A DNA stretch of 64,000 nt from Candidatus Omnitrophota bacterium (GTDB lineage: Bacteria; Omnitrophota; Gorgyraeia; Gygaellales; Profunditerraquicolaceae), in NCBI GenBank assembly GCA_028715785.1, contig JAQURC010000004.1, positions 21,885 to 85,884 of the forward strand, in the 5' to 3' direction. The notes under the pieces are model-generated. The model was given only the letters and a program-made list of their open reading frames with translations, did not search any database and was not told the origin of the DNA. A program made the position numbers and the translations under genes. Below, piece by piece: positions 2,995-49,729 of this stretch. Each line of letters begins with the position of its first letter. Position 1 is the stretch's first letter.

Positions 2995-3006
2995 AATAGG
3001 AATCTA

Positions 3007-3087
3007 GGGGACGGTCCTGTTTTTCTATACTTTGTAGCTGACGTTTAAACGTCAGCTACTCTGTGGATAACAAATAGAACCGTCCAC
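3007..3087. repeat. Palindromic intergenic repeat family R1, copy b. Central perfect palindrome at 3034-3059, DnaA-box consensus TGTGGATAA at 3062-3070.
   Basis: 64 nt identical to copy a. It lies between the kamA stop (3094) and the ychF-like start (2994). Confidence 0.85.
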
Positions 3088-3093
3088 TTTATT

Positions 3094-4281
3094 TTATTCC
3101 AGGTAGGTGTAAATCTTGCCCTTATAATTGCGCAGCACATATTTACCCTTGGCCTGGGAAAGGATATAATTTGGCCCCACAGGTATCTTTCCGCCGCCGC
3201 CGGGCCCGTCGATAACATAGGTCGGAACGGCGTAACCTGAAGTATGCCCGCGCAATTTCTCGATAATATTTATCCCCACGGCTACCGGGGTGCGGAAATG
3301 CTGTGTGCCCCTTACCGGGTCGCACTGATAAATATAATATGGCCTTACTCTCATTTGCAGAAGATCATGCATCAGGCGCTTCATAATAAACGGCCGGTCG
3401 TTGATGCCCTTAAGGAGCACCGACTGGCTGCCTAAAGGTATGCCGCTTTCAGAAAGCAAATCGCAGGCATTCTTGCAGCGCTTAGTAATCTCTTTGGGAT
3501 GATTAAAATGGATGCTCATCCAGATAGGAGAATATTTCTTGATCATATTTACCAGATTTTCGGTAACCCGCTGCGGTAAAGTTGCCGGGATACGCGTACC
3601 GATCCTCAACAATTCGACATGCGATATGTCGCGGATCTTGGCAATCAGGGATTCCAATGCCTCATCCTCTAAGGTAAGCGGATCCCCTCCGGAAATCAAT
3701 ACATCCCTGATCTTACGGTTAGCTTTAATATACTCTATGGCCGCATCGAATTTAGTTTCGGGGTTTGTTTCTTTTTCTTCATGATCACCCACGAGGCGCC
3801 GCCGGGTGCAATGCCGGCAATACATCGCGCAATGCTCCGTAGCCAATAAGAGGACCCTGTCCGGATAGCGGTGCACCAGATGCGGCGCCGGAGAATCCCG
3901 GTCTTCAGCGCAAGGATCGGCCATTTCGTGCGGGGAAATCGAGAATTCATCGCCGACCGGTACAGACTGCCTGCGGATGGGGCAATCCGGATCTTCGGTA
4001 TCAATCAGGCTTGCCCAATAAGGAGTAACGGCCATGGCCAACCTTCCCTTGGCTTTATCAATTCCTTTTTCCTCCTGGGGAGTAAGTTTAATGATCTGGG
4101 TCAATTCTTCCTTGGTGCGTATCCTGTGTTTAAGCTGCCAATGCCAATCCTCCCAATCCAACGGGTTGACATCCTTAAAGAGCGGGATCTGCTGATAATC
4201 GCGCCAACGCCTCGGAGGCCGCGGCATAACCGGCGTTTCAATTTGTGTTTTTTGGTTTTCTGAACCTTCGGGGTTACTCAA
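3094..4281 (-). CDS. kamA: Lysine 2,3-aminomutase family radical-SAM enzyme (KamA/EpmB-like).
   Basis: Radical SAM cluster motif CAMYCRHCTRRR, then ISGGDPL and the KamA-family C-terminal region. The ORF carries a roughly 50-aa N-terminal extension. Its start overlaps the stop of the upstream ATP-grasp gene by 4 nt. Confidence 0.85.
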   Translation of the reverse strand: MSNPEGSENQKTQIETPVMPRPPRRWRDYQQIPLFKDVNPLDWEDWHWQLKHRIRTKEELTQIIKLTPQEEKGIDKAKGRLAMAVTPYWASLIDTEDPDCPIRRQSVPVGDEFSISPHEMADPCAEDRDSPAPHLVHRYPDRVLLLATEHCAMYCRHCTRRRLVGDHEEKETNPETKFDAAIEYIKANRKIRDVLISGGDPLTLEDEALESLIAKIRDISHVELLRIGTRIPATLPQRVTENLVNMIKKYSPIWMSIHFNHPKEITKRCKNACDLLSESGIPLGSQSVLLKGINDRPFIMKRLMHDLLQMRVRPYYIYQCDPVRGTQHFRTPVAVGINIIEKLRGHTSGYAVPTYVIDGPGGGGKIPVGPNYILSQAKGKYVLRNYKGKIYTYLE

Positions 4282-5279
4282 TTCAGCCTTTTCCTTTCCG
4301 AGGCACTCATCAGTATTGCCTCAATAAGATCCTCATACCTCATCCCTGCGGCATATGCCATTATAGGAAAATTGGATTCTTTGGGGTCTAATCCCGGTAA
4401 AGGGTTGATCTCCAGGACATACGGCACATTAAATTTATCCAAACGGATGTCGGTCCGGGAAATATCCAAACAGCCTACGGCACGGTGCGTACGTAAAGCC
4501 ACGTCCTTTACCCTTGCTTCTATATCTTTATCCAGCCTTGCCGGGCAATGGAATTCAGGGACCAGCCCCAATTCGCTGTTACCCTGGAACTCTTTCATCT
4601 TCCAGGAATAAAAATACTCCCCGCTTTTTTTACAATTGGAAAAATCGATCTCTAAAATCGGAAGCACGCGGGTTTTTCCATTTTCCAAGATCCCCACGGT
4701 CAACTCTTTGCCTACGATAAATTCCTCAACCAGGGCCTCCTGCCGGTACACGTCTATAGACTCCCTGACCTTCTTGAAAAGGTCTTCTTTATTTTCAACG
4801 ACGTTGGTCTTGTTTATCCCCTTTGCCGATCCTTCGCAATTAGGCTTGACAATCAACGGGAACCGCAGCTGCGCATCCAAAGGTTCATCCCCTTTGACAA
4901 AAAGCTGAAAATTGGGGGTGGGGATATTTTCCGCCTGTAATATTTTCTTGGTCAGCCCCTTATTCAATGCCAGGGCCAAAGAGAAGGTGTCTGAACCGGT
5001 ATAAGGTATATTTAAATAATCCAGCACTGCCGGCACTTCGGATTCGCGGAACCTGCCTTGTTTGCCTTCGGCGATATTAAATACCATATCTACGCGATTT
5101 TTCCTGAAATATGAAAATAAGGCCGGATACTCCACATCGATTGCCTCGACGGAATGGCCTTTGTTTTTAAGGGCCGAAACAACGCAATTGATCGTTTCCT
5201 CCGAATCGCATTCGGAGAAATAATCCGCCGGCTTTTGCGGGTCTTTCTTTTTTAAATTGTAGGTCAGGGTAACTTTCAT
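4278..5279 (-). CDS. D-alanine--D-alanine ligase-family ATP-grasp ligase, paralog 1.
   Basis: Ddl-family hallmarks: FNIAEGKQGRFRESEVPAVLDYLNIPYTGSD, PLIVKPNCEGSAKGI, EALVEEFIVGKELTV and VLEINPLPGL. It is 333 aa long and directly abuts paralog 2. Confidence 0.8.
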   Translation of the reverse strand: MKVTLTYNLKKKDPQKPADYFSECDSEETINCVVSALKNKGHSVEAIDVEYPALFSYFRKNRVDMVFNIAEGKQGRFRESEVPAVLDYLNIPYTGSDTFSLALALNKGLTKKILQAENIPTPNFQLFVKGDEPLDAQLRFPLIVKPNCEGSAKGINKTNVVENKEDLFKKVRESIDVYRQEALVEEFIVGKELTVGILENGKTRVLPILEIDFSNCKKSGEYFYSWKMKEFQGNSELGLVPEFHCPARLDKDIEARVKDVALRTHRAVGCLDISRTDIRLDKFNVPYVLEINPLPGLDPKESNFPIMAYAAGMRYEDLIEAILMSASERKRLN

Positions 5280-6293
5280 CTAATTTAATCCGTTGCGCGC
5301 AATAGCGCTGCTTAGGATCTTGCCGACCATCTGGTCGTAAGTAATGCCGATATTTTTGGCAACAAGCATAAAAACATCTTCGGTAGATAGGGAAGGCAGC
5401 GGATTTATCTCCAGCACATAAGGGTTGCCGTCATTATCGACCCTGAAATCCACCCTGCCAAAATCCCGGCACTCGACGCTGCGATAAACCTTTAAAGCCA
5501 GCTCATCCAGCTTTTTCTTTAAATCATTGGTTATCTTTGCCGGGCAGATATATTCTAACCTGTCGGAAGTAATTCGCGCAAAGGTATAAAATTTGTCGTT
5601 TAATTTTAATTTTCCGTCTATCTTTATCTGCACTACCGGCATAACTTCGGGGTCCTGATTACCGACCAGCGCCACGGTGAACTCCTGCCCGGAGATAAAT
5701 TCCTCGACTAAAGCCGGCTGTTTGTAGGTTTTAGTGATAAAATCCACTTGTTTCTTAAGTTCATCGGCGCTTTCCACGCGCGAGTTTTCACTGAGGCCTT
5801 TGGATGAGCCTTCGAAGCGCGGCTTGACAATCAACGGGAACCGGCAATGGTCCTGGTCAATCAAAGCCTCCGCGGAACTTACTTCGAAAAACTTAGGGGT
5901 GGGGATTTTTTCGGCGATAAAAATTTTTTTGGCCATCACCTTATCCAGGGTGAGCCCCAAAGTCAAGGCGTCTGCTCCGACAAAAGGAACTCCGGCCATT
6001 TCCAGCAAAATCGGCACCTGGGATTCGCGGTTCCTGCCGGTTAAACCCTCGGAGATATTAAAAACAATATCTACCCCCAAATTATCGATTTTTTCCAGCA
6101 AGTTATTGGCATTGCCTATCTTCTTTACTTTAAAACCGTTGGCGGCAATGGCTTCGGCGATAACATTGATCGTCGAAAGGGCGTCAAACTCCGCGTTGGC
6201 ATCAAGCGGATCCCCTTCCTTGAATTTATAATCTGTTTTTAAATCGTAGGTTAATCCCACAGTTTTCATGATTTTATCTCTTTTTACCGCCAT
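5280..6293 (-). CDS. D-alanine--D-alanine ligase-family ATP-grasp ligase, paralog 2.
   Basis: Same motif set as paralog 1: FNISEGLTGRNRESQVPILLEMAGVPFVGAD, PLIVKPRFEGSSKGL, PALVEEFISGQEFTV and VLEINPLPSL. It is 337 aa long and is the first gene of the tightly packed three-gene cassette. Confidence 0.8.
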   Translation of the reverse strand: MAVKRDKIMKTVGLTYDLKTDYKFKEGDPLDANAEFDALSTINVIAEAIAANGFKVKKIGNANNLLEKIDNLGVDIVFNISEGLTGRNRESQVPILLEMAGVPFVGADALTLGLTLDKVMAKKIFIAEKIPTPKFFEVSSAEALIDQDHCRFPLIVKPRFEGSSKGLSENSRVESADELKKQVDFITKTYKQPALVEEFISGQEFTVALVGNQDPEVMPVVQIKIDGKLKLNDKFYTFARITSDRLEYICPAKITNDLKKKLDELALKVYRSVECRDFGRVDFRVDNDGNPYVLEINPLPSLSTEDVFMLVAKNIGITYDQMVGKILSSAIARNGLN

Positions 6294-9332: not shown

Positions 9333-9960
9333 GGAGCGGGCAAATTCCGCATTTAGGATCCTGCTTGCGGCAGTAATCCTTGGCTAATTTCACTAAAAGA
9401 GCGTGATACTCATTAAACAGTTTCGCATCCTTCTTAAGGTTAGACATAAAAATATCCTGCACTTGAGAATAATCGGCTGCTTCTTTGATTAATCCGTGCC
9501 GTAAAAATATCCTTTTGGTATAGGCATCGACGACAAATATGGGTTTATTTAAAGCGTAAAGCAATATGGAATCGGCGGTCTCCGGGCCGATGCCGTTTAC
9601 CGCCAGCAATTGCCTGCGCAGGCGCGTTAAATCCTGGGCAGCCATGGATTTAATTTTTGCCGCATAGTTATCCAAGAAAAATTTTAGGAAGCTTTTAAGC
9701 CGGGCCGCTTTAACATTATAATACCCGGCGCTCCTAATCAAACCGGCAAGCTTTTTTGGCTTAAGCCGATAAAGTTTCCGGGGGTTTAATAATTTCTTTT
9801 CTTTAAGGGCTGTAACTGCCTTTTCAACATTGGACCAATTGGTATTCTGGGTAAGGATTGCCCCCACCATCACTTCAAAAGCAGTATCGGCAGGCCACCA
9901 ATGCTGCGCTCCAAAGGCAGAATAAAGCCGCCTGAATATGCGGTTTAACTTATGCTTCAT
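9322..9960 (-). CDS. Endonuclease III-like HhH-GPD base-excision repair protein with a C-terminal 4Fe-4S Cys cluster.
   Basis: VMVGAILTQNTNWSNVEKA, the HhH motif LLAVNGIGPETADSIL, the catalytic-region VVDAYTKRIF and the C-terminal C-X6-C-X2-C-X5-C. Confidence 0.75.
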   Translation of the reverse strand: MKHKLNRIFRRLYSAFGAQHWWPADTAFEVMVGAILTQNTNWSNVEKAVTALKEKKLLNPRKLYRLKPKKLAGLIRSAGYYNVKAARLKSFLKFFLDNYAAKIKSMAAQDLTRLRRQLLAVNGIGPETADSILLYALNKPIFVVDAYTKRIFLRHGLIKEAADYSQVQDIFMSNLKKDAKLFNEYHALLVKLAKDYCRKQDPKCGICPLHGQ

Positions 9961-11897
9961 TCTTTAAGCTCTAAAGGATTAAAACCGTAATAGGCAAAAA
10001 GAGTATATGCCGTGCCGGAAACTGATCCGGTATGGCTGCCTTTAGGAGTCATCCAGCCGTGCCCGGTATCAACATGCTCTTGAGTAGCATAAGGCAGGCA
10101 GCCTTCTCCCTGCCCGGAGGGAGAAGAGCTGGAAATAACCATGTTCCCTAATTCACTCAGGTACATCTGCGCTTTTTTCCCATAATCAACCGCTTTAGGC
10201 ATATCCGCGCCGCCTTTAGAATAAAAATCTTCCATGATTTTATAAGACACGACCATCTGGGCAGTCCACTCCGAAGAAACCACGCCGCCGCGGGCTGTAT
10301 GCAGCTGCGGAGCAAAATCAAACCCTTTTATCTTTACGCTCTGGCCGTTTAAGCGCAGGAAATCCGCCTCAACCCCGCAATTCTCTTCGACAAACCCCAT
10401 AATTTTATCCGGATCCATCCCCAGCTCTTTGAGTTTCCGCGGGCCGATCGCGGCGATCGACCAGGCATAAGTATCCGTGGCAATAGTCGAATCCCCTTTA
10501 CCGCGCTTAACCGGCAGATCCGGCCGGTCATAGGTATGCTCAAGAAGCCAGGTGATCGTCTTTTGGCCGGCTTGCGCGTATTTTTTCTTCCCCGTAACCT
10601 TAGCCAGCATATTAAAAAACGCATAAGCATCGAGATTATGTTCCGTAGAATACCAATCTATTTCCGGGCCGCCGCGAAGGCCGCCGTCTGCATCCGCGTT
10701 CTGCAGGTCAATAATCGTTTGGGCGATACTTTCAGCTAACCCCAGATAACTCTTATCCTTACTACCCTGCATATACTGCATAATAGCCAGGCCTACCCAG
10801 AGATTGGGCCCGCTGTGCATGATAAATTCCGCCGGGGCTCCGTCATTGACATAATAGGCATTAAGGAACCAGCCATTTTCTCTTTTGGCCTTATGAGCAA
10901 AAAATTCCAGGATTTTTTTTGCGCGGTCAAAATCCCCAAAATAAGTATAGACCTGGATAAGCAAGGCCAGATCGTAAGTAAATGACCAGTTGGCAATATC
11001 TTGATCCCCTTCAAAACTCGATACCAGACCGGTGCGGTTATTCTGATGCACCTTAAGCCATTGGTACATCTTGTCAAAATTAGCTTTTTCAAGGACTACT
11101 TTCTTTTCATCTAACCGGGATAATTCTTTAACCGCGACATTTTCAGTGCGCAAGGCATCGGTTAATTTACTTTCTAAAACAAGTCTCTCCGCGGTTAAGG
11201 CGGCGATCGATTCGTTAAGCTGCTTGATCTGATTCAGATTACTTGCTTCGGTTTGGGCTTTTTGCGACTCAACAGATTTAATCCTCTCTTCTAAATCTTT
11301 CAGCCGCACCTGAAGGTCCTGCCGCTGCGCAACGATTTCCCCTATTTTTTGTTCGGCCAGGCGGGAATCTTTTAATACGCCGGCCAGCCTTTCAACCAGC
11401 AGCTTATTACTGCGGGTTAAGTTAAAATTCAGATAACTATTGATACCTAAAATTAAGGTGACGAATACAATCGCCGATAAAGCCACCGGAATAAAAAGCT
11501 TTTTTAACCAGGCATAGCGCATCAATTCATTATTCTGCTTGGCTGATATACGGTCATAATTTAATCCTACCTGGCATTTGCGCTTGCCTTCGGAGGTTTC
11601 TTTGAACCAGACAATACTGGCTTGGGCGGGAATCGATTTTTTACTAACGGGGATGTCGATCTCCAGTGATAATTTGCATTTCTTCTCTTTGATCAGCTTA
11701 AGCATCTCCGGGCCGATATTATTGATGAAAAGGCAGATGCCGCCGCGGCCGATATTATTCGTAAAGCCCTGCAGCCAGCTGGAAAGAAAAGTCTTACCAT
11801 CCAGGTCCTCCAGGCGAAACTGCACCGGAAACACCGTATCCAAACGCAGGTATTTACGCTGCTCTACTGCCGGCTTTATTTTATTTTTAAATGACAT
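9957..11897 (-). CDS. Multidomain protein: N-terminal PilZ domain, one TM helix, a long coiled coil, and a C-terminal (alpha/alpha)-toroid glycoside-hydrolase-like domain.
   Basis: PilZ motifs RKYLRLDTVFPVQF and NIGRGGICL. Hydrophobic segment LFIPVALSAIVFVTLILGI. Heptad-rich region 170-290. The C-terminal 350 aa are Trp/Tyr-rich, which suggests a six-hairpin glycosidase-like fold. Confidence 0.55.
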   Translation of the reverse strand: MSFKNKIKPAVEQRKYLRLDTVFPVQFRLEDLDGKTFLSSWLQGFTNNIGRGGICLFINNIGPEMLKLIKEKKCKLSLEIDIPVSKKSIPAQASIVWFKETSEGKRKCQVGLNYDRISAKQNNELMRYAWLKKLFIPVALSAIVFVTLILGINSYLNFNLTRSNKLLVERLAGVLKDSRLAEQKIGEIVAQRQDLQVRLKDLEERIKSVESQKAQTEASNLNQIKQLNESIAALTAERLVLESKLTDALRTENVAVKELSRLDEKKVVLEKANFDKMYQWLKVHQNNRTGLVSSFEGDQDIANWSFTYDLALLIQVYTYFGDFDRAKKILEFFAHKAKRENGWFLNAYYVNDGAPAEFIMHSGPNLWVGLAIMQYMQGSKDKSYLGLAESIAQTIIDLQNADADGGLRGGPEIDWYSTEHNLDAYAFFNMLAKVTGKKKYAQAGQKTITWLLEHTYDRPDLPVKRGKGDSTIATDTYAWSIAAIGPRKLKELGMDPDKIMGFVEENCGVEADFLRLNGQSVKIKGFDFAPQLHTARGGVVSSEWTAQMVVSYKIMEDFYSKGGADMPKAVDYGKKAQMYLSELGNMVISSSSPSGQGEGCLPYATQEHVDTGHGWMTPKGSHTGSVSGTAYTLFAYYGFNPLELKE

Positions 11898-11983: not shown

Positions 11984-12571
11984 TTAGGCGGGCTTAAAAG
12001 CAAAAAGGCTGGAGAAGCTGGTAAAACCGGTAATACCTTTTTGCGCGCAGATGATTTTAAGCCTGGTAAAAACCTCCCAGGTCATCTCCACGTCGGAAAG
12101 GGCCCGGTGCTCTTGTTTTGCCTCCACTCCCAGCTTCTGCGCTACAAACCAAAGCGCGTAGCGGGGCAGATCCGGCATGAGCCTTTTGGCCATGGCCAAC
12201 ACGTCAAAAACAGCGATATTATCAATTGCAGGGAAGTCGATCAACTTAAGTTCACTATTCAAAAAACTTAAATCAAATCCCGCGTTGTAGGAGCAAAGGC
12301 AGCTGCCGGCAATAAAATCTAAAAACTTGGGCATTACTGTCTCTGTGGCCGGGGCGTCTTTTAACATCTCCGGAGTGATTTTATTTACGGCAAAAGCCTC
12401 GGGAGAAACCGGCCGGCCAGGATTGACTAAAGCATCAAATACAGCTAACCTCTGTTTGCCCTTGACCCGCAAGGCCGCCAGCTCAACAATACGGTCTCCG
12501 GCATCAGGATACAAACCGGTGGTCTCGGTATCAAATATGCTAAATTCTACTTCATCGATATCTTCAGGCAT
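11984..12571 (-). CDS. DnaQ-like 3'-5' exonuclease (DEDDh family).
   Basis: Exo I motif FSIFDTETTGL and Exo III region with HRALSDV. 195 aa. Confidence 0.8.
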   Translation of the reverse strand: MPEDIDEVEFSIFDTETTGLYPDAGDRIVELAALRVKGKQRLAVFDALVNPGRPVSPEAFAVNKITPEMLKDAPATETVMPKFLDFIAGSCLCSYNAGFDLSFLNSELKLIDFPAIDNIAVFDVLAMAKRLMPDLPRYALWFVAQKLGVEAKQEHRALSDVEMTWEVFTRLKIICAQKGITGFTSFSSLFAFKPA

Positions 12572-13460
12572 CGCCTGTTACGATATAGGCCGGAATTAAA
12601 CGCCTGGGCTTATAAGACAGCTTCACTTGGCGTAAATTCTCTAAACCTGAATCGTCCATAATATTAATATACTTATAATCTTCTAATTCCCGGCAAAACC
12701 GGCGAAAAATAAATTGCGCCAACCCTTTAACCGAAAGATCGGTTATTTCATAAAGGATGCAAAATGTATCGCTATTTAACCGGTACCCAAAACTAAAGGC
12801 TTTGATTTTTTTATCGCTCCTGACGACAATACCTTCTAAGCCCAGCTGTTTATAATTATCAAGCGCCTCTTTAATTACCTTGCGGTTGTCCTCAAGCATG
12901 CCGCGATAAAGATCGTCGCTGGATTGTGTTTTGCGCAGCGCCGCCCAGGAATTAAACAAACTTAAGCAACTGTCTTTATCCGCCAACTTCAACTTGCGCC
13001 AGTCAAAATCATAGTGTTTGATGAAATAATTACAGGAGGCGCGCTGGGATTTAAATTTATTCCCCCGTAGAAGCGCCAAATCGTCCTTTAAACAAAGGTA
13101 GTCGGGGTATTTCTCGCGGCCAAGATATCCTAAAGCACGATAATACTCCAAATCCCCCTCTTCAATATTTTCAATACGGCTGATATCTTTATTTTTATTA
13201 ATACTATCCATGACCGCAAAGGCCTGTTTTACAACTTGCGGCCTCTTTTCTTTTGCCAGCGGCCCCAGATACATAAAACAGCCGGTCTGATCGCGAAAAA
13301 ATACACAGAGGCTATTTTCAATAACAACCCAGCCGATATCATAGAGGGAGCGCCAGATGTAGATATTGGCAAAAGAGTAGGCTGCCAGCTCATGCGGGGC
13401 TAAAGCGAGATACCGGTTAAACAGCCTATGGTCTTTTAAAATTAATCTATTTAGTTTCAT
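12564..13460 (-). CDS. Stand-alone DUF2156-like protein. This is the MprF C-terminal domain type, a GNAT-fold putative aminoacyl-tRNA-dependent transferase.
   Basis: FANIYIW and LRGNKFKSQRASCNYFIKHY resemble the conserved segments of the phosphatidylglycerol lysyltransferase C-terminal domain. The start is taken as MKLNRL at 13460. The family assignment is unverified. Confidence 0.45.
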   Translation of the reverse strand: MKLNRLILKDHRLFNRYLALAPHELAAYSFANIYIWRSLYDIGWVVIENSLCVFFRDQTGCFMYLGPLAKEKRPQVVKQAFAVMDSINKNKDISRIENIEEGDLEYYRALGYLGREKYPDYLCLKDDLALLRGNKFKSQRASCNYFIKHYDFDWRKLKLADKDSCLSLFNSWAALRKTQSSDDLYRGMLEDNRKVIKEALDNYKQLGLEGIVVRSDKKIKAFSFGYRLNSDTFCILYEITDLSVKGLAQFIFRRFCRELEDYKYINIMDDSGLENLRQVKLSYKPRRLIPAYIVTGDA

Positions 13461-13471
13461 GATGATGAAAC

Positions 13472-13535
13472 GGGACGTCCTCAAAAGGGACACCCTGCTA
13501 TATGTTACAAGGGTGTCCCCGCGGAGGACGTCCCC
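13472..13535 (-). other. Large nested perfect hairpin. It spans the stop codon of the YkgJ-like gene and ends 12 nt before the DUF2156 start.
   Basis: The outer stem GGGACGTCCTC / GAGGACGTCCC is 11 bp. The inner stem GGGACACCC / GGGTGTCCC is 9 bp. The 15-nt loop contains the TAA stop at 13505-13507. Confidence 0.7.
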
Positions 13536-14032
13536 TTCTTCAGGTTCAACTCAGCGACCTCGCGTACCTCTTCATAGGCCTGGATGACCTGGGGGTTATC
13601 TTTGAGCATTTTTAGCACTTGCGGAGAATTAAGATAATTAGTCAGATAAATAATATAATCTTTGGCCTCCTGGCTGTTTATTTTTTCAGAGACGTAAGGG
13701 CAATTCAAATCAACGGTTAAGAGCACTTTTCCTTTGCGTAAATTAATCAAAAAGGGATAAAGCTGGCATTCAAACGGCCGGATATCGTAGATTTTGCATT
13801 TATTGTCTGTGCTGCCTAAAAACGGGCAGATAAAATCCGCGCCATCGGGATTAGGGATAAGGTGCAGGCGCCGGTTAATAGAAATAGAGGCGGCCGGGAT
13901 ACCTTTTTTATCCAATAACTCCTGGATCTCCTCGTCCAGAAGGCAGGGGCTCCATACGGAATCTGCTTCTTTAAACCTGCAGCAGCCGCGGCATTTGATG
14001 CAAAACTCCTGCGGGACGAATTGTTTGATCAT
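13505..14032 (-). CDS. YkgJ-family Cys-cluster protein (putative Fe-S or zinc-binding, CxxCxxCC).
   Basis: N-terminal CIKCRGCCRF with additional conserved Cys residues. 175 aa. Confidence 0.6.
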   Translation of the reverse strand: MIKQFVPQEFCIKCRGCCRFKEADSVWSPCLLDEEIQELLDKKGIPAASISINRRLHLIPNPDGADFICPFLGSTDNKCKIYDIRPFECQLYPFLINLRKGKVLLTVDLNCPYVSEKINSQEAKDYIIYLTNYLNSPQVLKMLKDNPQVIQAYEEVREVAELNLKKGTSSAGTPL

Positions 14033-14370
14033 TTTACAATGCTCCCCGGCTTTAATTTTTTATCCGGGCTGACTACTGCCAGCGTGTTTTCATCCGAACC
14101 GGCCAGAATCATACCCTGGCTTTCTACCCCGCGCAAAACTACCGGATCTAAATTATCGACCAAGACTACCTGCTTGCCGATTAATTCTTCTTTTGAATAG
14201 AAAGCCTTGATCCCGGCAACTACCTGCTTTTGCCTGCCGCCTAAATCCAGGGTTAAAATTAATAATTTGTCCGCGTTGGGATGGTCATTAACTTCTTTTA
14301 TTTCCGCTATCCTTAATTCTAACTTTCTAAAATCATCGATGGTTGCCATTTTCTCCTCCGTTCCAGGCAA
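14029..14370 (-). CDS. tRNA-binding domain protein (CsaA / Trbp111 / MetRS C-terminal-like).
   Basis: DFRKLELRIAEIKEVNDHPNADKLLILTLDLGGRQKQVVAGI...GMILAG matches the OB-fold tRNA-binding domain. Confidence 0.75.
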   Translation of the reverse strand: MPGTEEKMATIDDFRKLELRIAEIKEVNDHPNADKLLILTLDLGGRQKQVVAGIKAFYSKEELIGKQVVLVDNLDPVVLRGVESQGMILAGSDENTLAVVSPDKKLKPGSIVK

Positions 14371-14431
14371 GAAATAAAACTTGAGGCTATGATATCACTA
14401 CCGGCAGGAAAACTCAAGATAAAGTACTGAA

Positions 14432-14674
14432 TCAGGCGGTTGCCCGTACAAAAATACACCCCGCCAACTCCTTATCCGCCGCAAATTGCGATTGCCCGAT
14501 TTGAAAAACATAGGAAGGAAATTTCTGGATCAACACTATTGACATTCCGGCTAAAACCCCCATCGCCGCAAGTTTTTGGAGTTTCTTATGGTCCTTGGTA
14601 TGGATATAAGCAACTTTGGCTTTTTGGTTTACCTGCAAATTGACAAGAGAAGAAGTAACATCACTTATTTTCAT
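14432..14674 (-). CDS. feoA: Ferrous iron transport protein FeoA.
   Basis: Small SH3-like protein: LQVNQKAKVAYI...KLAAMGVLAGMSIVLIQK. The probable start is the Met at 14674. Confidence 0.7.
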   Translation of the reverse strand: MKISDVTSSLVNLQVNQKAKVAYIHTKDHKKLQKLAAMGVLAGMSIVLIQKFPSYVFQIGQSQFAADKELAGCIFVRATA

Positions 14675-14843
14675 CGGGTTTGCTTCCTTTCTTAAAATAC
14701 TCCGGCCATTTTGGCTTTGGCGGCGTCTCAAAACCGCAATTCGGGCATCTAATAAGCTTGCAACCTTTCATAACAGGGCAACTTTTGCAGGCTTCTTCTG
14801 CCTTTTTCTCGTTAAATTCATATCCGCATAAACTACATTTCAT
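14661..14843 (-). CDS. Small Cys-rich zinc-ribbon protein (60 aa) inside the feo operon. It may be FeoC-like or a FeoB-associated Cys-rich protein.
   Basis: MKCSLCGYEFNEKKAEEACKSCPVMKGCKLIRCPNCGF carries CxxC, CxxC and CxxC pairs. Its ATG overlaps the feoB stop in an ATGA arrangement. It falls below the ORF-track length cutoff as an independent start. Confidence 0.5.
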   Translation of the reverse strand: MKCSLCGYEFNEKKAEEACKSCPVMKGCKLIRCPNCGFETPPKPKWPEYFKKGSKPDENK

Positions 14844-16288
14844 AGGCTGATTCCCAAAATATTTAATATAAGATTCATTATAAATCCTGCGGTAAACGAG
14901 AAAAGCAGGATAAAGACTGAAATCCCCACACCGGTTTTCCAGCCCCTTTCTTTCACATTCATCAAAAATTGCGCGATACAAGGCAAAAACAATGTCAAAG
15001 TTACGCAGGCCACGACCAGCTGATTGCCGGTAAATAACCCCGCCTTTTTAATATCATACAGCCCGCCGGCGCCATAATCTCTCCTAAAGAATCCGAATAA
15101 GAAGGCAACCGCGGTTTTATCCGGCAAGCCAATCCAGCGGATAGGGTATTCTAAAATTTTGGTAAGCAAGCTAAACAGGCCCGTGATCTGGCCGATCCAG
15201 ATCATCATACTTGCCAATATAAACATGGGGAATATCTCCATAAAATACCATTTGACTCTCGTATAGGTTTTGATAAACACATTGGATAATTTAGGCAGCC
15301 GCAGAGGCGGGATTTCCATATAAAACGACGGCGAATCTCCCGGCAACACCTTGGAAGAAAGGAACCCTATTAAAACAAAAACCAATCCTACCACCCCTGC
15401 CCAGATCCACAATCCCTTGCTATTTCCTTCTAGCAAAGAAAGAATTACCCCCAACTGCGCTGCGCAAGGAATGGCTAAAGCGAGCAAAATAGTAGCAATA
15501 ATTCTTTCCCTTTTTGTAGGAAGTGTCCGGGTAACCATTGTCGCCATCGTATCGCACCCCAAGCCAAGGACCATGGGTATTACCGCCCTTCCGGTTAAGC
15601 CAATTTTTTTAAAAATCCTGTCTATCAATAAGGCCAGGCGCGGCAGATAACCCGTATCCTCGATAATTGCAAAGGCGATAAAGAACGTTGTGACGATAGG
15701 TAATATCAAAGCTACGGCATAACGCAGGCCTAAAGTGATCATCCCGTATTCACCCACAAATAATTCACGGAACAAATGCCGGGGGATAATTGAGCTGACT
15801 ACTTGCGTTATCCAGGGATTGATATGATTTTCAAAGATATCTGTCTCAATGAAATCAACCACTGTGCCTGCGCCAAATTCACCCACAAATTTATAGATAC
15901 CACAATAAAGTATTACCAGCAAAATAGGTATGCCCGTAACAGGATTTATCATTACCCTGCTAAGTTTTTCCTTAAACGGCAATCCGGGCTTCGGCAAGTG
16001 CTCTATGGCTCCACTTACAATACTACTTGCTTCCTCCTGCCTGCGTTGAGAAATTATATAAGAAAGCGGCTCCTGAAAATGCGTTTTGGCATGATTTACG
16101 ATTTCCATAATCTGGGCAAAGCTTTCCGCTTCGCTGGATTTCACCAGCGACATAATCTCCTCATCCTCCTGAAGCAACAATAGGCCGATAGAACGCTTAG
16201 AGATGCCGTGGTCCGCTCCTAGTAAATTTTCTATCTTCTCCAAAGAGTTTTCTAAGATATCGCCGGGGTATTTACATGTTTCTGACAT
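14840..16288 (-). CDS. feoB: FeoB C-terminal part (helical GDI-like domain plus polytopic membrane permease), encoded as a separate gene.
   Basis: Gate-motif membrane core with multiple TM segments. It has its own SD GGGAGG 8 nt upstream of the ATG at 16288, and it overlaps the end of the G-domain gene by 17 nt in a different frame. Confidence 0.8.
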   Translation of the reverse strand: MSETCKYPGDILENSLEKIENLLGADHGISKRSIGLLLLQEDEEIMSLVKSSEAESFAQIMEIVNHAKTHFQEPLSYIISQRRQEEASSIVSGAIEHLPKPGLPFKEKLSRVMINPVTGIPILLVILYCGIYKFVGEFGAGTVVDFIETDIFENHINPWITQVVSSIIPRHLFRELFVGEYGMITLGLRYAVALILPIVTTFFIAFAIIEDTGYLPRLALLIDRIFKKIGLTGRAVIPMVLGLGCDTMATMVTRTLPTKRERIIATILLALAIPCAAQLGVILSLLEGNSKGLWIWAGVVGLVFVLIGFLSSKVLPGDSPSFYMEIPPLRLPKLSNVFIKTYTRVKWYFMEIFPMFILASMMIWIGQITGLFSLLTKILEYPIRWIGLPDKTAVAFLFGFFRRDYGAGGLYDIKKAGLFTGNQLVVACVTLTLFLPCIAQFLMNVKERGWKTGVGISVFILLFSFTAGFIMNLILNILGISL

Positions 16289-16850
16289 ATTCTTCAATCC
16301 TCCCTTTCAAGATATCTATGCCTCTGCCTGTGGTCGAGACGGTGGAAACAACAGGAACTTTTAAATCTTTTTCTAAATGCTGCGAGTTTATTTTCATGCC
16401 GATTTTTTCCGCCTCATCGATAATATTCAAAACCAGCACGACCTTAAGTTTGGCCTCGATTAACTGTAATGTAAGGGGCAGCATTCTCTCTAAGTTTTTG
16501 GCATCAACGATATGGATGATGATATCGGGTTTTTCTTCAATCAATATATTCCTGGCCACCCGCTCCTCTTCGGTAATCGGCAGCAATGAATACATGCCCG
16601 GTGTATCGATAACCTCAAGTTCCCTGTCGCCTATTCTGGTTTTTCCTCTGGCTACTTCAACTGTAGTCCCCGGATAATTGGATACCGTAACATATGCCCC
16701 TGTCAGGCGGTTAAACATAACAGATTTACCGACGTTAGGGCTGCCCACAATCGCAATTTTACTCAAATTACCCCTAATCTCTCCCCCTTTCTTGCCGCAA
16801 CAAGAACCTGTTGGCTTAAATCCTTTAAATAATTTGTTAACAAAATCCAT
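16272..16850 (-). CDS. feoB: FeoB N-terminal GTPase (G) domain, encoded as a separate gene.
   Basis: G1 GSPNVGKS, G2 PGTT, G3 DTPG and G4 NIID. An SD GGAG precedes the Met at 16850. The ORF ends exactly at the G-domain / helical-domain boundary. Confidence 0.8.
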   Translation of the reverse strand: MDFVNKLFKGFKPTGSCCGKKGGEIRGNLSKIAIVGSPNVGKSVMFNRLTGAYVTVSNYPGTTVEVARGKTRIGDRELEVIDTPGMYSLLPITEEERVARNILIEEKPDIIIHIVDAKNLERMLPLTLQLIEAKLKVVLVLNIIDEAEKIGMKINSQHLEKDLKVPVVSTVSTTGRGIDILKGRIEEYVRNM

Positions 16851-16887
16851 TGGGGTCTCCTCTCTCTTTTTCGTTCTAAAATAAGCC

Positions 16888-17868
16888 CTAAAATGTATAA
16901 ACAAAAGTAAAAACTACTGAATCGTTTGCATCAGCGTTAGTCCCTGTCACCACACGCTGATACGCTATTAAGGTTTGAATCTTATCATTTGACCAACCAA
17001 ACCCCGGAGCAATGGTCAAATAATTTATATTTGAATCAAGAGTTCTTGCTCCATTTTGTCTTTTATCTCCCTGCAGAAACCCGTTTGCCTCAAACATAAG
17101 ATTGAACCCTTTTGACAGAAAATATTCTACTCCGAAATCATAATTAAGGTAGTTTGCATAACGGGTCTTGACACCGTCAACGTGCGCTTGCTGCGGGAAA
17201 TTGTAGACGGCATCAGCATGAAAAATAAACGGTTTTAATTTCTTGCTAAGATTTATCCCAAACCCCTGATCCCAGGAACCGCCTCCTGATCCGGCACCCA
17301 TCAAATCCGCCCCTAACTTATCAGGATCCGCATTCTCATATTTTCCTGTGGGCATTTTAAGCTGAAACAATCCTGTTATATGAGGCATCCAGCCCTTTTC
17401 TTCAAGGGCACAGTAACGCATAAAAAGATAACTATCGCCAAGGCCTTCTGAATGAGCGCTGGAACCATCCTGTTTGACATAATTTTGCTGATAAACCATC
17501 TGGGCATCAAGCTCAAGCCTATTCGTAAGGCCATATTGGGCAAAAAGCTGTTGCTGAAACTGGTACTTCTTATCACCACCGGGTAAAGAATCATAGTGGC
17601 CATCCGCGTTGAAGGTGCCTCTGGTGCGGTTATAAAAGAAAAATGGCTGGATCACAAACTTGCCTTTGCCGCAAAGCGGCGCTGTCCAAGTAGTAAGCGG
17701 GCCTGCGGAAACCGGCTCCCATTCATCATGCGCTTCGTGGCTTTGCTCAGAGGAAAGCAAACCACCGCCCTCCGGCTTGTGACTTTCACTGTGAGCGAAA
17801 CTATAATCCGCTTGATTCAACAATATAAAACTTACAATCGCCGGAATTAACAATACCCCCTTAAACAT
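16888..17868 (-). CDS. Outer-membrane beta-barrel protein (putative porin) with a His-rich N-terminal segment.
   Basis: Signal peptide MFKGVLLIPAIVSFILLNQADYSFA. A mature His/Glu-rich stretch HSESHKPEGG..HEAHDEW. Alternating amphipathic strands and a C-terminal Phe (TFVYTF). Confidence 0.6.
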   Translation of the reverse strand: MFKGVLLIPAIVSFILLNQADYSFAHSESHKPEGGGLLSSEQSHEAHDEWEPVSAGPLTTWTAPLCGKGKFVIQPFFFYNRTRGTFNADGHYDSLPGGDKKYQFQQQLFAQYGLTNRLELDAQMVYQQNYVKQDGSSAHSEGLGDSYLFMRYCALEEKGWMPHITGLFQLKMPTGKYENADPDKLGADLMGAGSGGGSWDQGFGINLSKKLKPFIFHADAVYNFPQQAHVDGVKTRYANYLNYDFGVEYFLSKGFNLMFEANGFLQGDKRQNGARTLDSNINYLTIAPGFGWSNDKIQTLIAYQRVVTGTNADANDSVVFTFVYTF

Positions 17869-39795: not shown

Positions 39796-42228
39796 TTATT
39801 CGTTTTCTTCGGCAATGACCGGGGCAACGCAGGAAACCCGGTCTTTGTCCTGCAACTTAATCAAGCGCACGCCTTGGGATGAACGGCCGGTTTCACGGAT
39901 ATCTTTGATCGCGCAGCGTAAAAATATCCCGTTCTGGGTAATAACCATGAGTTCATCTTTATCATTTACGGTTTTTAAATTTACCGCATGGCCATTCTTA
40001 TCCGTAACCTTGATATTAATCACCCCTTTGCCGCCGCGGCTGGTTAACCGGTATTCATCGATGGTCGTGCGTTTTGCAAACCCTAACTCCGTAACCGTTA
40101 AGATCGTTGAAGCCTTTTGCGGGACCACCATATCGATAACTTCATCTTTTTTGGACAGAGATATCGCCCGCACCCCATGGGCGCCCCGGCCCATTTCGCG
40201 CACCTTATCCTCGGAAAACCTGATTGCCTTGCCCTGTTTGGTCCCGATAAGCAATTCCTGTTTTCCGTCGGTCATCTCCACGCCGATTAACACATCGTCC
40301 TTGTCTAAAGTAATCCCGATAATCCCGCCTTTGCGCGGGTTACCGTAAGCTTCAAGTTTAGTTTTTTTGATTTGGCCTAATTTAGTGACCATGACTAAAT
40401 ATTTATCCGCGGAAAATTCTTTTACCGGAATAGTCGAGCTGACCTTGGCCGACTGCTCCATTTGCACAAGATTAATAATCGCCTTGCCTTTAGATATGCG
40501 GCTGGCCTGAGGAATTTCATAAACCTTCAGCCAGTGCACCTGCCCTTTATCGGTAAAAATCAACAAGTAATCTTTGGTGGAAGCGACAAAAAGATGCTCG
40601 CTAAAATCCTCTTCTTTTAATTCCGCTCCGGTTGCCCCGGTGCCGCCGCGTTTTTGCTTACGGTAGGCGCTTACCGGCAGGCGCTTAATATAACCGCTAT
40701 GGCTGATAGTTACAACCACGTCCTCTTCGGCAATTAAATCCTCGACCTCCAGATCTTCGGCTTCCCCGACAATATCCGTGCGGCGGCTGTCGCCATATTT
40801 CTTCTTTAATTCTTCCAGTTCTTCTTTAATGATCGCTTCGATCTTTTTTAGTGAGCCGAGGATCGCCCGGCATTCTTCGATTTTCTTTAAAAGTTCCGCG
40901 TACTCGGCGTCAATTTTATCGCGCTCAAGAGCGGTCAGGCGCTGCAGCTGCATTTCTAGAATTGCCTGGGATTGAATCTCAGAGAGCTCAAACTCTTTCA
41001 TTAAATTTAATTTGGCGCTCTCTACGCTTTTGGAGGTCTTGATAACCCTGATAATCCGGTCGATAAATTTAAGCGCGATTTTCAAGCCTTCTAAAATATG
41101 CGCGCGTTTTAAAGCTTTGTCTAACTCAAACTGCGTGCGCCTGCGGATAACTACTTTGCGGTGCTCGATATAACAATCCAACACCTGGCGCAAACTTAAA
41201 ACCTTGGGACGGTTATCAACTAAGGCTAACATAATAATACCAAAGGTGTTTTCCAGCTGAGTATGCTTAAAAAGCTGGTTTAAAACAATCTGAGACTCGG
41301 TGTCGCGCTTAAGCTCAACGACAATGCGCATGCCTTCTTTATCCGATTCATCGCGAATATCGGAAATGCCTTCGATCTTTTTCTCATCAACTAAACCGGC
41401 GATTGACTCGATCAGGGCTGACTTTTGCACCTGATAGGGAATCTCGGTAAAAATAATCAAGTCTTTGCCGTTCTTCTGGTGCTCCACAGTGGCCTTGGCC
41501 CGCACTACAAGCCTGCCTCTTCCTGTAGTATACGCATCCTTAATTCCACCCTTGCCGCAAATTAAACCGCCGGTGGGGAAATCCGGCCCCTTAATATAGT
41601 GCATCAAATCTTTAATTTCCGCTTCGGGATGGTCAAGGATATGAATAATCGCGTCGCAAACTTCGTTTAAATTATGCGGCGGAATATTGGTGGCCATGCC
41701 TACGGCAATGCCGCTTGAACCGTTAACCAAAAGGTTGGGCAGGGTCGCCGGTAACAACAACGGCTCCTTTAAGGAAGAATCGAAGTTGGGCCCAAAATTT
41801 ACGGTTTCTTTTTCAATATCATCCAACATTTCATCGCTGACTGCTGCCAGGCGGGCCTCGGTATAACGCATCGCCGCGGCGGCGTCACCGTCCACTGATC
41901 CAAAGTTTCCCTGGCCGTCAACTAAAGGGTAACGCAAAGAAAAATCCTGCGCCATCCTGACCAGCGTGTCGTAAATCGCCACGTCTCCGTGCGGATGGTA
42001 CTTACCCATGGTTTCACCGACGATACGGGCGCATTTTTTGTAGGGCTTGGAATGTTCCAGGTTAAGTTCGCGCATGGCGTAAAGGATGCGCCGGTGCACG
42101 GGCTTTAAGCCATCGCGGACATCCGGCAGGGCCCGGCCGACAATTACGCTCATGGCGTAATTTAAATAGGAGTCCTTGACCTCATCCTCGATATAAACCT
42201 GAATTATTTTGTCGTTGCGCGTATACAT
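39796..42228 (-). CDS. gyrA: DNA gyrase subunit A.
   Basis: Active-site Tyr region AAMRYTE, the QRDR-like segment and C-terminal beta-pinwheel repeats. 810 aa. Confidence 0.9.
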
Positions 42229-42230
42229 AA

Positions 42231-44672
<2,442 letters not shown>

Positions 44673-44957: not shown

Positions 44958-44961
44958 ATTA

Positions 44962-46056
44962 CTAGTTAAGGCGCATGGGTAAAACTATGTAAACATAACC
45001 GCTGATCCGGATAACCCCGGGTTTTTCTGTATCCGTTAACTCTAAACCAATTACTTCTTCGTTCAAATTCTTCAAAACATCCATTAAATATACCGGGTTA
45101 AAACCAATCACCAGCTCCCTGCCCTGATATTCTACCGCCAATTCTTCATGAAACTCGCCGACATCGGGAGTAGACTTGGAAATTACCAGTTTATTCTTAA
45201 AAACCTCGAATTTTACCGCCTGATAATCCGGCGTTGCCAAAAGCGCGGCTCTTTTTATCGCCAATAAAAACTGGTTACGCTGCACCTTCATTTTATTTTC
45301 AGATACCGCGGGAACAACTTGTTTGTAATCGGGAAATTCCCCTTCGATTAAACGAGATACAACCGCCACGCCGCCTAAATCGAACAAGGCCTGATTACTG
45401 CTAATCACCAAAGATAATTCTCCCTCATCTTTCAGGTTACGGTTTAATTCCTGTATTGTTTTAATCGGGACAACCATGCTTACTTCAGCTTCGGGCTCGG
45501 CTGTGGTTAGTTTTCTCTCCGCAACCGCCAATCTCTTGCCATCGGTAGCCACCAAGGTTAACACCCCTTTACTAATCTTAAAAAGAATACCGTTTAAAAC
45601 ATAGCGGGTTTCATCAAAAGACACCGCAAATGCGGTTAACGATAATATTTCTTTTAAAACCCCTTGATTAATTTTAATAGCTTTCTTGTCTTTGAACTCA
45701 GGTAGTTTTGGAAACTCTTCTTTGGCCAATCCCATAATCTTAAATTGGCACATATCCGAATCAACGAGAACCTGATTGTTTTTTTTGGTGCCAACATTAA
45801 TAATATCCGAAGGGAACTCTTTAATTATATCGCTAAACCTCTTAGCCGGAATCGTGATTGCTCCCGGTTCCTGCATATCCACAGGGATTACACAGGTTAT
45901 CCCGATATCTAAATCCGTTGCTGTTAATTTTACCATCCCTAACTGGACATCAATTAAGATATTAGAAAGGATGGGTAATGCGGATTTGGTGGTAATTATG
46001 TTTTGTACGGCTTGAATTGCGTTAACCAGGTTTGTTTTTTCGACTTTAAATTTCAT
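44962..46056 (-). CDS. dnaN: DNA polymerase III beta sliding clamp.
   Basis: MKFKVEKTNLVNAIQAVQNIITTKSALPILSNILI, three-domain beta clamp. 364 aa. Confidence 0.9.
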   Translation of the reverse strand: MKFKVEKTNLVNAIQAVQNIITTKSALPILSNILIDVQLGMVKLTATDLDIGITCVIPVDMQEPGAITIPAKRFSDIIKEFPSDIINVGTKKNNQVLVDSDMCQFKIMGLAKEEFPKLPEFKDKKAIKINQGVLKEILSLTAFAVSFDETRYVLNGILFKISKGVLTLVATDGKRLAVAERKLTTAEPEAEVSMVVPIKTIQELNRNLKDEGELSLVISSNQALFDLGGVAVVSRLIEGEFPDYKQVVPAVSENKMKVQRNQFLLAIKRAALLATPDYQAVKFEVFKNKLVISKSTPDVGEFHEELAVEYQGRELVIGFNPVYLMDVLKNLNEEVIGLELTDTEKPGVIRISGYVYIVLPMRLN

Positions 46057-46197
46057 TTTAGGCTCCCCTTTTATTTATATATATTTAAAAACTTAAAATA
46101 ACAGTAGTCATAAAGGGCCCGCATGTTTGTTTACAAAGACTTAACTTGTTGCAATATGTCTAATTATAACAAATATTGTAATCTAATAACCTGGGGA

Positions 46198-48199: not shown

Positions 48200-49729
48200 A
48201 TGGAAAAACGCTTAGTTTTAGCTATTGGTTTGTCGCTTTTAGTATTATTGAGTTGGTCAGCCTTGATGCCTAAACCGCAACCAATTGATAATAAAGGAGT
48301 TACCGCGCCAGGTTCGCAGTTACAAACATTGCCGCCGGGCAGCTCTCCTGTTCTTCAGCCCACAATTGCCACTTCACCTCTTACGGATGTTATAAAAGAG
48401 ACGGTAAAATTTACCCAAGATAAACGCGAAATCATTTTTAACCCGGAGAGAGGTGCTATTTTAGAAGTGATTTTTAAGAATAATCTCGAGCACCGCCTGC
48501 CGCTTAAAATCGGTTTTCTGAGCGATAATAACCTTGTCTTTAAACAACAAAGCATGACGGGGGAGAGCATTACCTTTGTCCATGAAGATCAAAATAGGCG
48601 GATTATCAAGAAATTTATTATTCCTAACAATAGTTACGCCATAGAGTTAACAATTAAGGTTCAAAATTTATCCTCCTCTCCTTTAGTGCTAAATCCGCAA
48701 TTAGTTTTGGGCCGCCTGGATTTATCCGCCAAAAATCCGCAAGCGCGCTATCAAGACGTGCTTATCGGTGGAAAGGAAAAGACGGTTCATCTTTCGGCAG
48801 GAAAAGATTCCAGCAGTCAGAATGTCCAATTTGTGGGCTTGCGCGATCAGTATTTTTGCGCCATTGTTGAACCTGTTGATGTAGCAGCTGGTGCGTATGT
48901 TAAAAAAATTAACCCACAAGAATCCGAAATTGGATTAGTGACAAATGAACTAACCTTAAAACCTGGAACTCAGATTGGACATTCATATCGTGTTTACTTG
49001 GGGCCTCAAGATTTAAATATATTAAATAGTATTAATCCAGAATGGACAGCAATTATTTATTTTGGTACATTTGATTTTATTGCGCAGTTGCTATTACAAC
49101 TGCTTGGATTCTTCTATGGCTTGGTTCACAATTGGGGCTGGGCGATAATTATTTTAAGCATCGCGGTTTATCTCCTGTTATTTCCTCTATCACTTAAGCA
49201 AATGCGTTCGATGAAAGAGATGCAGGTTTTGCAGCCTAAAATCGAGGCTATGCGCAAGGAGTTTAAAGACAATCCGCAAAGATTAAATAAGGAAATAATG
49301 CAACTTTATAAGGAACATAAAGTTAACCCTCTTAGCGGTTGCCTGCCGCTTTTATTGCAAATGCCCATATTTTTTGCCCTTTATCAGGCATTGATCCGTT
49401 CAGTAGCTTTAAGAGGGGCGCATTTTTGGTGGATTACGGACCTATCTTCACCGGATAAGCTTTTTGTTTTCAAAAATTCGATACCTTTTTTAGGCAATCA
49501 GTTAAATATCCTTCCAATTCTAATGGCTATTGGGATGTATGTGCAACAGAAGATATCTATGGGAAAGGCGGTTGGAGAAGCTGCTCAGCAACAGAAGATA
49601 ATGTCCATTATTATGCCGATCATGTTTGGAGTGATTTTCTATCAAATGCCATCGGGGTTAGTGCTTTATTGGTTTGTAAATAGCATATTGATGTTGGGCT
49701 ACCAATTTCGTATTAATAGTCAAAAATGA
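48200..49729 (+). CDS. yidC: Membrane protein insertase YidC.
   Basis: N-terminal TM, a large periplasmic domain and the C-terminal 60-kDa IMP core with 5 TMs. 509 aa. Confidence 0.9.
   Translation: MEKRLVLAIGLSLLVLLSWSALMPKPQPIDNKGVTAPGSQLQTLPPGSSPVLQPTIATSPLTDVIKETVKFTQDKREIIFNPERGAILEVIFKNNLEHRLPLKIGFLSDNNLVFKQQSMTGESITFVHEDQNRRIIKKFIIPNNSYAIELTIKVQNLSSSPLVLNPQLVLGRLDLSAKNPQARYQDVLIGGKEKTVHLSAGKDSSSQNVQFVGLRDQYFCAIVEPVDVAAGAYVKKINPQESEIGLVTNELTLKPGTQIGHSYRVYLGPQDLNILNSINPEWTAIIYFGTFDFIAQLLLQLLGFFYGLVHNWGWAIIILSIAVYLLLFPLSLKQMRSMKEMQVLQPKIEAMRKEFKDNPQRLNKEIMQLYKEHKVNPLSGCLPLLLQMPIFFALYQALIRSVALRGAHFWWITDLSSPDKLFVFKNSIPFLGNQLNILPILMAIGMYVQQKISMGKAVGEAAQQQKIMSIIMPIMFGVIFYQMPSGLVLYWFVNSILMLGYQFRINSQK

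Follow-up and report, generated by a model that had tools for sequence, protein, structure and literature searches.

Which reaction might be carried out by the products of an operon that joins a free-standing DUF2156 protein to a tRNA-binding protein, a YkgJ-type cysteine-cluster protein and a DnaQ-like exonuclease? The question is raised by a cluster of four genes on the minus strand (Table 1) of a 64,000-nucleotide (nt) stretch of contig JAQURC010000004.1 from a Candidatus Omnitrophota bacterium, hereafter called the window. Nearly all that is known of DUF2156 comes from lipid aminoacylation of the MprF type, and the original prediction had suggested an aminoacyl-tRNA-dependent transferase that lacks the MprF flippase and has a dedicated tRNA-binding partner. 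We found that the four genes are a translationally coupled operon conserved across Omnitrophota, and that its enzymatic core is a two-part enzyme, consisting of an eight-cysteine YkgJ-type protein and a soluble tandem-GNAT protein of the BT_3689 branch, a large branch separate from the MprF-type enzymes. The enzyme of the window is a DUF2156 transferase of the tandem-GNAT kind whose obligate partner is new, as is the tRNA-linked context that it has in one phylum; it is not a reduced form of MprF. No description of a YkgJ-DUF2156 fusion or of the four-gene operon was found in the literature searched. The result provides a concrete, testable hypothesis for two families that have lacked a function, YkgJ/UPF0153 and free-standing DUF2156, and raises the possibility of a new way for tRNA or acyl-coenzyme A (acyl-CoA) to be fed into a modification reaction.

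A translationally coupled operon conserved across Omnitrophota

Overlaps had been noted at two junctions of the cluster, and both are present in the window: the stop codon of the tRNA-binder gene and the start codon of the YkgJ gene share an ATGA (4 nt, 14029-14032), and the stop of the DUF2156 gene overlaps the start of the exonuclease gene by 8 nt (12564-12571). The operon itself had been recognized correctly, but its assigned limits of 12564-14370 leave out the exonuclease gene, which is located at 11984-12571. The longest open reading frame (ORF) of the tRNA binder begins at TTG 14370; we placed its start at ATG 14349 behind a GGAGG, which gives 106 amino acids (aa), as in its cluster mates. 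For the DUF2156 protein the start is most likely ATG 13460 and not GTG 13493, with a resulting length of 298 aa that matches more than 100 homologues. With this start 44 nt separate the YkgJ and DUF2156 genes in this genome, and in most relatives the two genes overlap or abut. In the NCBI annotation the four proteins are named, in the order of transcription, 'methionine--tRNA ligase subunit beta', 'YkgJ family cysteine cluster protein', 'phosphatidylglycerol lysyltransferase domain-containing protein' and '3'-5' exonuclease'.

In a scan of one genome per species, 141 stretches were found to encode a relative, and the best 80 of these are nearly all labelled Omnitrophota, at identities down to 51%. 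Neighbouring genes were detected by tblastn and with hidden Markov models built from these loci. The gene order tRNA binder, YkgJ, DUF2156, exonuclease, all on one strand, is present in about 120 Omnitrophota loci at identities down to 34-51%, so the pairing of genes seen in the window is conserved phylum-wide. In at least 96 of 99 testable loci the tRNA binder is the gene immediately upstream; the exonuclease gene follows immediately downstream in 101 of 108 (displaced in 2 and absent in 5). An identical ATGA overlap between the tRNA-binder and YkgJ genes was found in 66 of 76 loci, and 54 of 77 show an overlap of 4-8 nt between the DUF2156 and exonuclease genes. Even the locus with only 34% identity (L169) keeps the order tRNA binder, YkgJ, DUF2156.

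The surroundings of the cluster are far less stable. The PilZ, HhH-GPD and M20 genes that flank it in the window vanish below about 60% identity, where PabB/PabC, HypF/HypD or TPR-transglutaminase genes take their place, and the upstream flank consists of feoAB in the window versus a V-ATPase operon in close relatives. The arrangement of the four genes is conserved far beyond chance.

The YkgJ-DUF2156 core and its two partners

The YkgJ protein had been regarded as a bystander of the cluster, a view that had to be abandoned, since in other lineages YkgJ is the very partner that is fused to DUF2156. A HMMER search of 1.84 billion cluster representatives (50% identity) gave 3,698 DUF2156 matches of this separate branch at E up to 1e-3. 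Among the 149 nearest representatives, 60 (about 40%) carry an N-terminal YkgJ domain, and every one of the 57 that reach 400 aa or more is among these; fusions to a tRNA-binding or exonuclease domain do not occur among the 149. The predicted fold of one fused protein (P0131) reached a predicted local distance difference test (pLDDT) score of 91.2 and a predicted template modelling (pTM) score of 0.74. A metagenome scan seeded with the fused proteins returned 34 unfused four-gene loci and 3 fused loci with both tRNA binder and exonuclease; in 42 of the 45 fused loci outside the four-gene lineages neither of these genes is present within 4 kb. As most fused genes lack both neighbours, the YkgJ-DUF2156 pair is the widespread unit, encoded as a single polypeptide in many other lineages, and the tRNA binder and exonuclease were added to it specifically in Omnitrophota or near relatives. 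The closest partner of DUF2156 is YkgJ; the tRNA binder is coupled to the pair in Omnitrophota. A tblastn search of plasmids matched only unfused DUF2156 of Bacteroidales and Acetoanaerobium.

Fused genes also occur within Omnitrophota. In one such lineage (L084) the order is ArfB-like gene, tRNA binder, fused gene and exonuclease-WYL, and the first of these, encoding a 136-aa protein with an RF-1 domain (ArfB-like peptidyl-tRNA hydrolase, 5274-5684), abuts the start of the tRNA binder. Just upstream of the fused gene and an exonuclease gene in L162, a single ORF of 723 aa (1724-3895) combines a phosphoglucose-isomerase-like region with a tRNA_bind domain; this may be a real fusion or the run-through of two genes.

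Eight cysteines of the YkgJ protein (C11, C14, C17, C18, C69, C79, C89 and C111) are invariant in 83 sequences and make up the CxxCxxCC motif and four further positions downstream of it. They presumably bind an Fe-S cluster or Zn; a sequence search found no solved structure related to the protein. The same set of CxxCxxCC plus four more cysteines occurs in FliB, a [4Fe-4S] flagellin lysine methylase which, like the preQ1 methylase DpdM, acts on primary amines, and FliB is the sole remote relative for which a metal cluster has been demonstrated. However, the FliB and DpdM models have no detectable similarity to the YkgJ protein, which is here fused to or paired with DUF2156. With no NCBIfam match to the gene, homology to FliB or DpdM was discarded and is kept as a remote lead only.

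A profile search upheld the DUF2156 assignment of the third gene (Table 1), with PF09924 aligning over profile positions 10-297 of 298. More than 1,260 homologues were found; identity is 69-100% among the best 120 listed, and most of these have a length of about 298 aa. The AlphaFold2 model of the protein (pLDDT 91.5) has a tandem-GNAT fold, and Foldseek placed it closest to 2HQY with a TM score of 0.87, versus 0.63-0.68 for the domains of L-PGS, A-PGS and MprF. Family profiles searched against the PDB matched only 2HQY (E 1e-38 and 4e-76); chains of MprF, L-PGS and A-PGS gave no match to profile A2 (E up to 1) or profile A4 (E up to 10). 2HQY is BT_3689 of Bacteroides thetaiotaomicron, a free-standing DUF2156 protein of 305 aa, which is homologous over the full length and has the same fold. 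Judged by sequence, the protein of the window belongs to this BT_3689/2HQY branch and not to the aminoacyl-phosphatidylglycerol synthase branch. Identity to BT_3689 and its Helicobacter pylori relative HPB8_1270 is only 23-27%, and the Bacteroides orthologue has neither YkgJ nor tRNA binder nor exonuclease as a neighbour; it is found in the context lrgA-lrgB-DUF2156-Acetyltransf_9, divergent from pta-ackA.

With MprF and the other aminoacyl-phosphatidylglycerol synthases, ErgS and VlmA, the protein has in common the PF09924 domain and a tandem-GNAT fold with a positive helix between the halves, but identity to MprF-type domains is 9-16% and the partner proteins are different. The absence of a flippase domain had been predicted correctly: all 298 aa are taken up by the GNAT pair, and homologues are either about 298 aa long or bear YkgJ. 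Because both a membrane domain and a sequence-level match are lacking, we rejected an MprF-type lipid aminoacylase, and the annotation as 'phosphatidylglycerol lysyltransferase domain-containing' has to be considered misleading for such proteins.

Residues G133, R140, W172, E238, G246 and K280 are invariant family-wide. G133 and R140 are part of the basic helix between the GNAT halves, GNKFKSQRxxxNxFxK, which is the best-conserved motif of the family. MprF and ErdS are said to use this inter-GNAT helix for tRNA; it could equally contact the phosphates of CoA. In the second GNAT, Gly246-x-Ala248 at the loop between beta4 and alpha3 is invariant, a position at which GNATs bind the CoA pyrophosphate, and the loop is a suggestive, not a decisive, sign of CoA binding.

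For the tRNA binder the tRNA_bind assignment stands, whereas the CsaA type proposed for it does not. TIGR00399 (metG_C_term) scored 130.9 versus a cutoff of 116.65, and the CsaA model TIGR02222 only 54.1 versus 119.65. The best PDB relatives are the C-domains of methionyl-tRNA synthetase (MetRS; 5H34 and 1MKH, 105-108 bits) and Trbp111 (1PYB, 92 bits), and CsaA structures reached just 30-40 bits. These scores rule out a CsaA chaperone and assign the protein to the Trbp111/MetRS-beta type. It has the 106-aa OB-fold tRNA-binding domain in common with Trbp111 of Aquifex aeolicus and the MetRS C-domain, but it is coupled to a cysteine-cluster protein and a GNAT transferase instead of MetRS. A search for KMSKS and a BLAST search with E. 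coli MetRS found no MetRS core gene in the window, nor within 4-6 kb in any fetched locus. The binder is thus not what remains of the 3' part of a metG gene split at this locus.

The exonuclease appears catalytically intact, as D14, E16, D100, H155 and D160, which represent Exo I, II and III and the catalytic histidine, are kept in at least 95% of 78 sequences. It scored 104.6 with the dnaq-family domain model TIGR00573 (cutoff 71.5). The Pfam label 'RNase_T' is the generic name of the DEDDh family, and orthology to RNase T was ruled out: the 25 best NCBIfam matches, which are led by PolC, DnaQ and DEDD models, include no RNase T model. Orthologues in Omnitrophota, compared in loci that include L005, L008 and L084, are mostly about 273 aa long with a C-terminal WYL domain. 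The form of about 195 aa without WYL is present in the lineage of the window and in several others, which indicates repeated loss of the domain. We also considered an anti-phage defence system and dropped it, since PADLOC gave no match for the tRNA binder, YkgJ, DUF2156 or the fused protein, and only generic DEDDh and WYL matches for the exonuclease.

Acyl donor, acceptor and the place of tRNA

The explanation that we favour, with a probability of roughly 0.4, is acyl-CoA-dependent N-acyl transfer by the YkgJ-DUF2156 pair onto a tRNA- or RNA-linked amine, with a Trbp111-like dimer presenting the tRNA and the exonuclease acting at the 3' end. The GNAT subunit would use acyl-CoA, most simply acetyl-CoA, as its nearest solved or genetically studied relatives seem to, and would N-acylate an amine on a substrate that the cysteine-cluster subunit helps to bind or process. 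In Omnitrophota this substrate would be tRNA-linked or RNA-linked, and the acceptor might be a tRNA base, the amino group of an aminoacyl-tRNA, or a lysine in a protein that handles RNA. The 3' end of the same RNA would be the target of the DEDDh(-WYL) exonuclease.

As regards the donor, what functional data exist for this branch speak for acetyl-CoA: it is stated to sit in the active site of 2HQY, and deletion of the H. pylori DUF2156 gene HPB8_1270 lowers the acetylation of four lysines of RNase J (PMC10700544). The location of the Bacteroides orthologue beside pta-ackA and another GNAT gene also supports acyl-CoA. An RNA link is supported by the bona fide Trbp111/MetRS-C-type binder, the intact exonuclease and the conserved basic helix, and a tRNA-linked substrate in Omnitrophota is plausible. 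Several points weigh against this explanation. The acetyl-CoA evidence consists of one paper's statement and knockout proteomics in a relative (PMC10700544), and the sequence identity to 2HQY is just 23-27%. Every biochemically characterised DUF2156 enzyme (MprF, LysX, ErdS, ErgS and VlmA) uses aminoacyl-tRNA as donor, and a dedicated tRNA binder would be no less fitting if tRNA were the donor and not the acceptor. Given the 42 fused loci without binder and exonuclease, the link to RNA may hold for Omnitrophota alone or reflect no more than synteny. A metal cluster is not known to have a role in simple acetyl transfer.

The donor suggested by the original prediction is retained in the first alternative, in which DUF2156 would move the aminoacyl group from a charged tRNA, presented by the Trbp111-like protein, to a soluble non-lipid acceptor that YkgJ binds or modifies. 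The transferases listed above include the free-standing ErgS and VlmA, and in ErdS and LysX channelling by fused aminoacyl-tRNA synthetase modules is known. In addition, the most conserved motif of the family is the helix that is said to serve tRNA binding in MprF and ErdS, and the tRNA binder is translationally coupled in nearly all testable loci. Against this stand the acetyl-CoA reported for the BT_3689 branch and the link of its H. pylori member to lysine acetylation, the missing sequence match to solved aminoacyl-phosphatidylglycerol synthase domains and the rarity of tRNA-binding neighbours among fused relatives; the exonuclease and the metal-cluster partner would also have no obvious role. 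Homology thus favours acyl-CoA, and architecture and the tRNA-binding neighbour favour aminoacyl-tRNA. On account of the branch and its acetyl-CoA data, aminoacyl-tRNA is one of two live options and not the default; we lean slightly to acyl-CoA as the donor and regard the aminoacyl-tRNA scheme as possible, if on the unlikely side.

A broader proposal covers both donors. YkgJ-DUF2156 would then be an unrecognised, metal-cluster-dependent class of tandem-GNAT enzymes working on tRNA, either by passing its aminoacyl group to a non-lipid acceptor or by acylating tRNA or aminoacyl-tRNA. The pair may be a widespread enzyme acting on tRNA, yet in this full form the proposal appears doubtful to us. 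In Elp3 and TmcA/Nat10-Tan1, an acetyl-CoA-binding GNAT is combined with an Fe-S module or a tRNA-binding adaptor and has tRNA as its target. The likeness of the pair to these systems would be one of logic, with only the GNAT fold shared and with neither a radical-SAM motif nor a helicase domain on the side of the pair. If the proposal were true, the acylating version would be analogous in function to TmcA/Nat10-Tan1 or Elp3, a Trbp111-like subunit dedicated to presenting tRNA and an exonuclease for the 3' end would serve the enzyme in Omnitrophota, and the Omnitrophota operon would represent a phylum-wide translation-linked pathway with no described counterpart.

That the association with tRNA reflects synteny alone, a possibility partly orthogonal to the question of the donor, seems to us quite unlikely. 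Only YkgJ-DUF2156 would then be a functional unit, the binder would be a general Trbp111/MetRS-beta protein, the exonuclease a separate housekeeping enzyme of DNA or RNA, both kept beside the pair by inherited synteny and shared expression, and tRNA would not be a substrate. Such a view would account for the fused loci with neither neighbour, for the lack of fusions to tRNA-binding or exonuclease domains, and for the wholly different context of BT_3689 in Bacteroides. It would also agree with the curated NCBI model that labels the binder a MetRS subunit beta, and with an exonuclease gene that is missing in 5 of 108 loci and has lost its WYL domain in several lineages. However, the four-gene order lasts to 34-51% identity while all other neighbours change, the identical ATGA of tRNA binder and YkgJ in most loci is typical of subunits made in fixed ratio, and a MetRS core gene was not found near any fetched locus.

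Finally, N-acylation or N-methylation of a small amine such as beta-lysine or a p-aminobenzoate-related compound, instead of RNA or protein, is very unlikely. In its favour, 12 of the 42 fused-only loci have a divergent operon next to the fused gene that encodes a KamA-family lysine 2,3-aminomutase, and the window aminomutase, 8 kb from the cluster, is 47% identical to it. PabB/PabC follow the cluster in about 34 Omnitrophota loci plus L084 and L169, small amines are the substrates of free-standing DUF2156 enzymes like VlmA, and primary amines are methylated by FliB and DpdM, which are related to YkgJ. Against it, the KamA neighbourhood is essentially confined to one lineage and the window, with none within 5 kb in other Omnitrophota loci, and PabB/PabC alternate with hydrogenase maturation and other genes as inherited synteny would. 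FliB and DpdM are only remote relatives, and no NCBIfam model, FliB included, matched the window protein.

Flanking genes and other features of the window

Table 1. Position of the four-gene cluster and other mapped features in the window.
Feature	Position	Strand	Evidence
Trbp111/MetRS-beta-type tRNA-binding OB-fold protein (predicted), 106 aa	14029..14349	-	PF01588, E 2.6e-30, 104.8 bits
YkgJ-family CxxCxxCC cysteine-cluster protein, 175 aa	13505..14032	-	PF03692, 36.2 bits (cutoff 23)
Free-standing tandem-GNAT DUF2156/LPG_synthase_C protein, 298 aa	12564..13460	-	PF09924, 112.7 bits
DEDDh (DnaQ-like) 3'-5' exonuclease, 195 aa	11984..12571	-	PF00929, 128.1 bits
Promoter-like site TTGAGT, 17-nt spacer, TG-TATCAT	14389..14417	-	Consensus scan, 9/12 matches
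gyrA	39796..42228	-	
gyrB	42231..44672	-	
dnaN	44962..46056	-	
dnaA	46198..47535	-	
yidC	48200..49729	+	

The promoter-like site TTGAGT/TATCAT falls in the gap of 60 nt that separates feoA from the tRNA-binder gene. Sites of this quality are not enriched compared with shuffled sequences, and it is a possible, weakly indicated promoter of the operon. No Rfam families or tRNA genes were found near the cluster. The feo locus upstream (14432-16904) looks split, with the FeoB G-domain (16272-16904) and the FeoB membrane part (14840-16297) in overlapping ORFs, and a small cysteine-rich ORF (14661-14981) overlaps the end of FeoB and FeoA (14432-14731). The split may be natural or due to a frameshift.

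On the other side of the cluster the window encodes a 646-aa protein (9957-11897) with an N-terminal PilZ domain, a long coiled-coil-like stretch and a weak GH76-like region, and this protein adjoins the cluster in 52 loci of closer relatives. Directly 3' of the cluster, about 34 deeper-branching Omnitrophota loci carry PabB (Chorismate_bind) and PabC (Aminotran_4), among them L044, L048, L065, L071, L077, L079 and L099, and so do L084 and L169; in L169 the two are a single fused gene.

A beta-lysine cassette had been noted near the cluster. The cassette is real: the region 3094-6293 contains an AblA-type lysine 2,3-aminomutase (TIGR03820, 526.9 versus a cutoff of 525.4), with two ATP-grasp genes of the D-Ala-D-Ala-ligase-like kind behind it. 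A gene for a beta-lysine acetyltransferase was not seen in the region, which may represent a beta-lysine peptide pathway. Its proximity to the cluster is not conserved within the phylum, with no KamA within 5 kb in 83 Omnitrophota loci, and a link between the two was dropped. In one broad lineage outside Omnitrophota the fused YkgJ-DUF2156 gene is divergent from genes for dCTP deaminase, KamA, a glutaredoxin-like protein and a 490-547-aa protein, and is followed by genes for a PAS histidine kinase and CbbQ; the fused loci with KamA are L127, L130, L131, L134, L138, L141, L142, L152, L160, L161, L166 and L167. The 490-547-aa protein is conserved beside fused genes in 23 loci (e.g. L135, 2307-3950, minus strand) and had no sequence match in Pfam, NCBIfam or the PDB.

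The region 39796-49729 is a chromosomal origin region (Table 1), in which the coding strand switches and the cumulative GC skew has its minimum at about 46 kb. The AT-rich gap of 664 nt between dnaA and yidC (47536-48199) is likely oriC. The four-gene cluster is located about 34 kb from the origin region and is co-oriented with replication.

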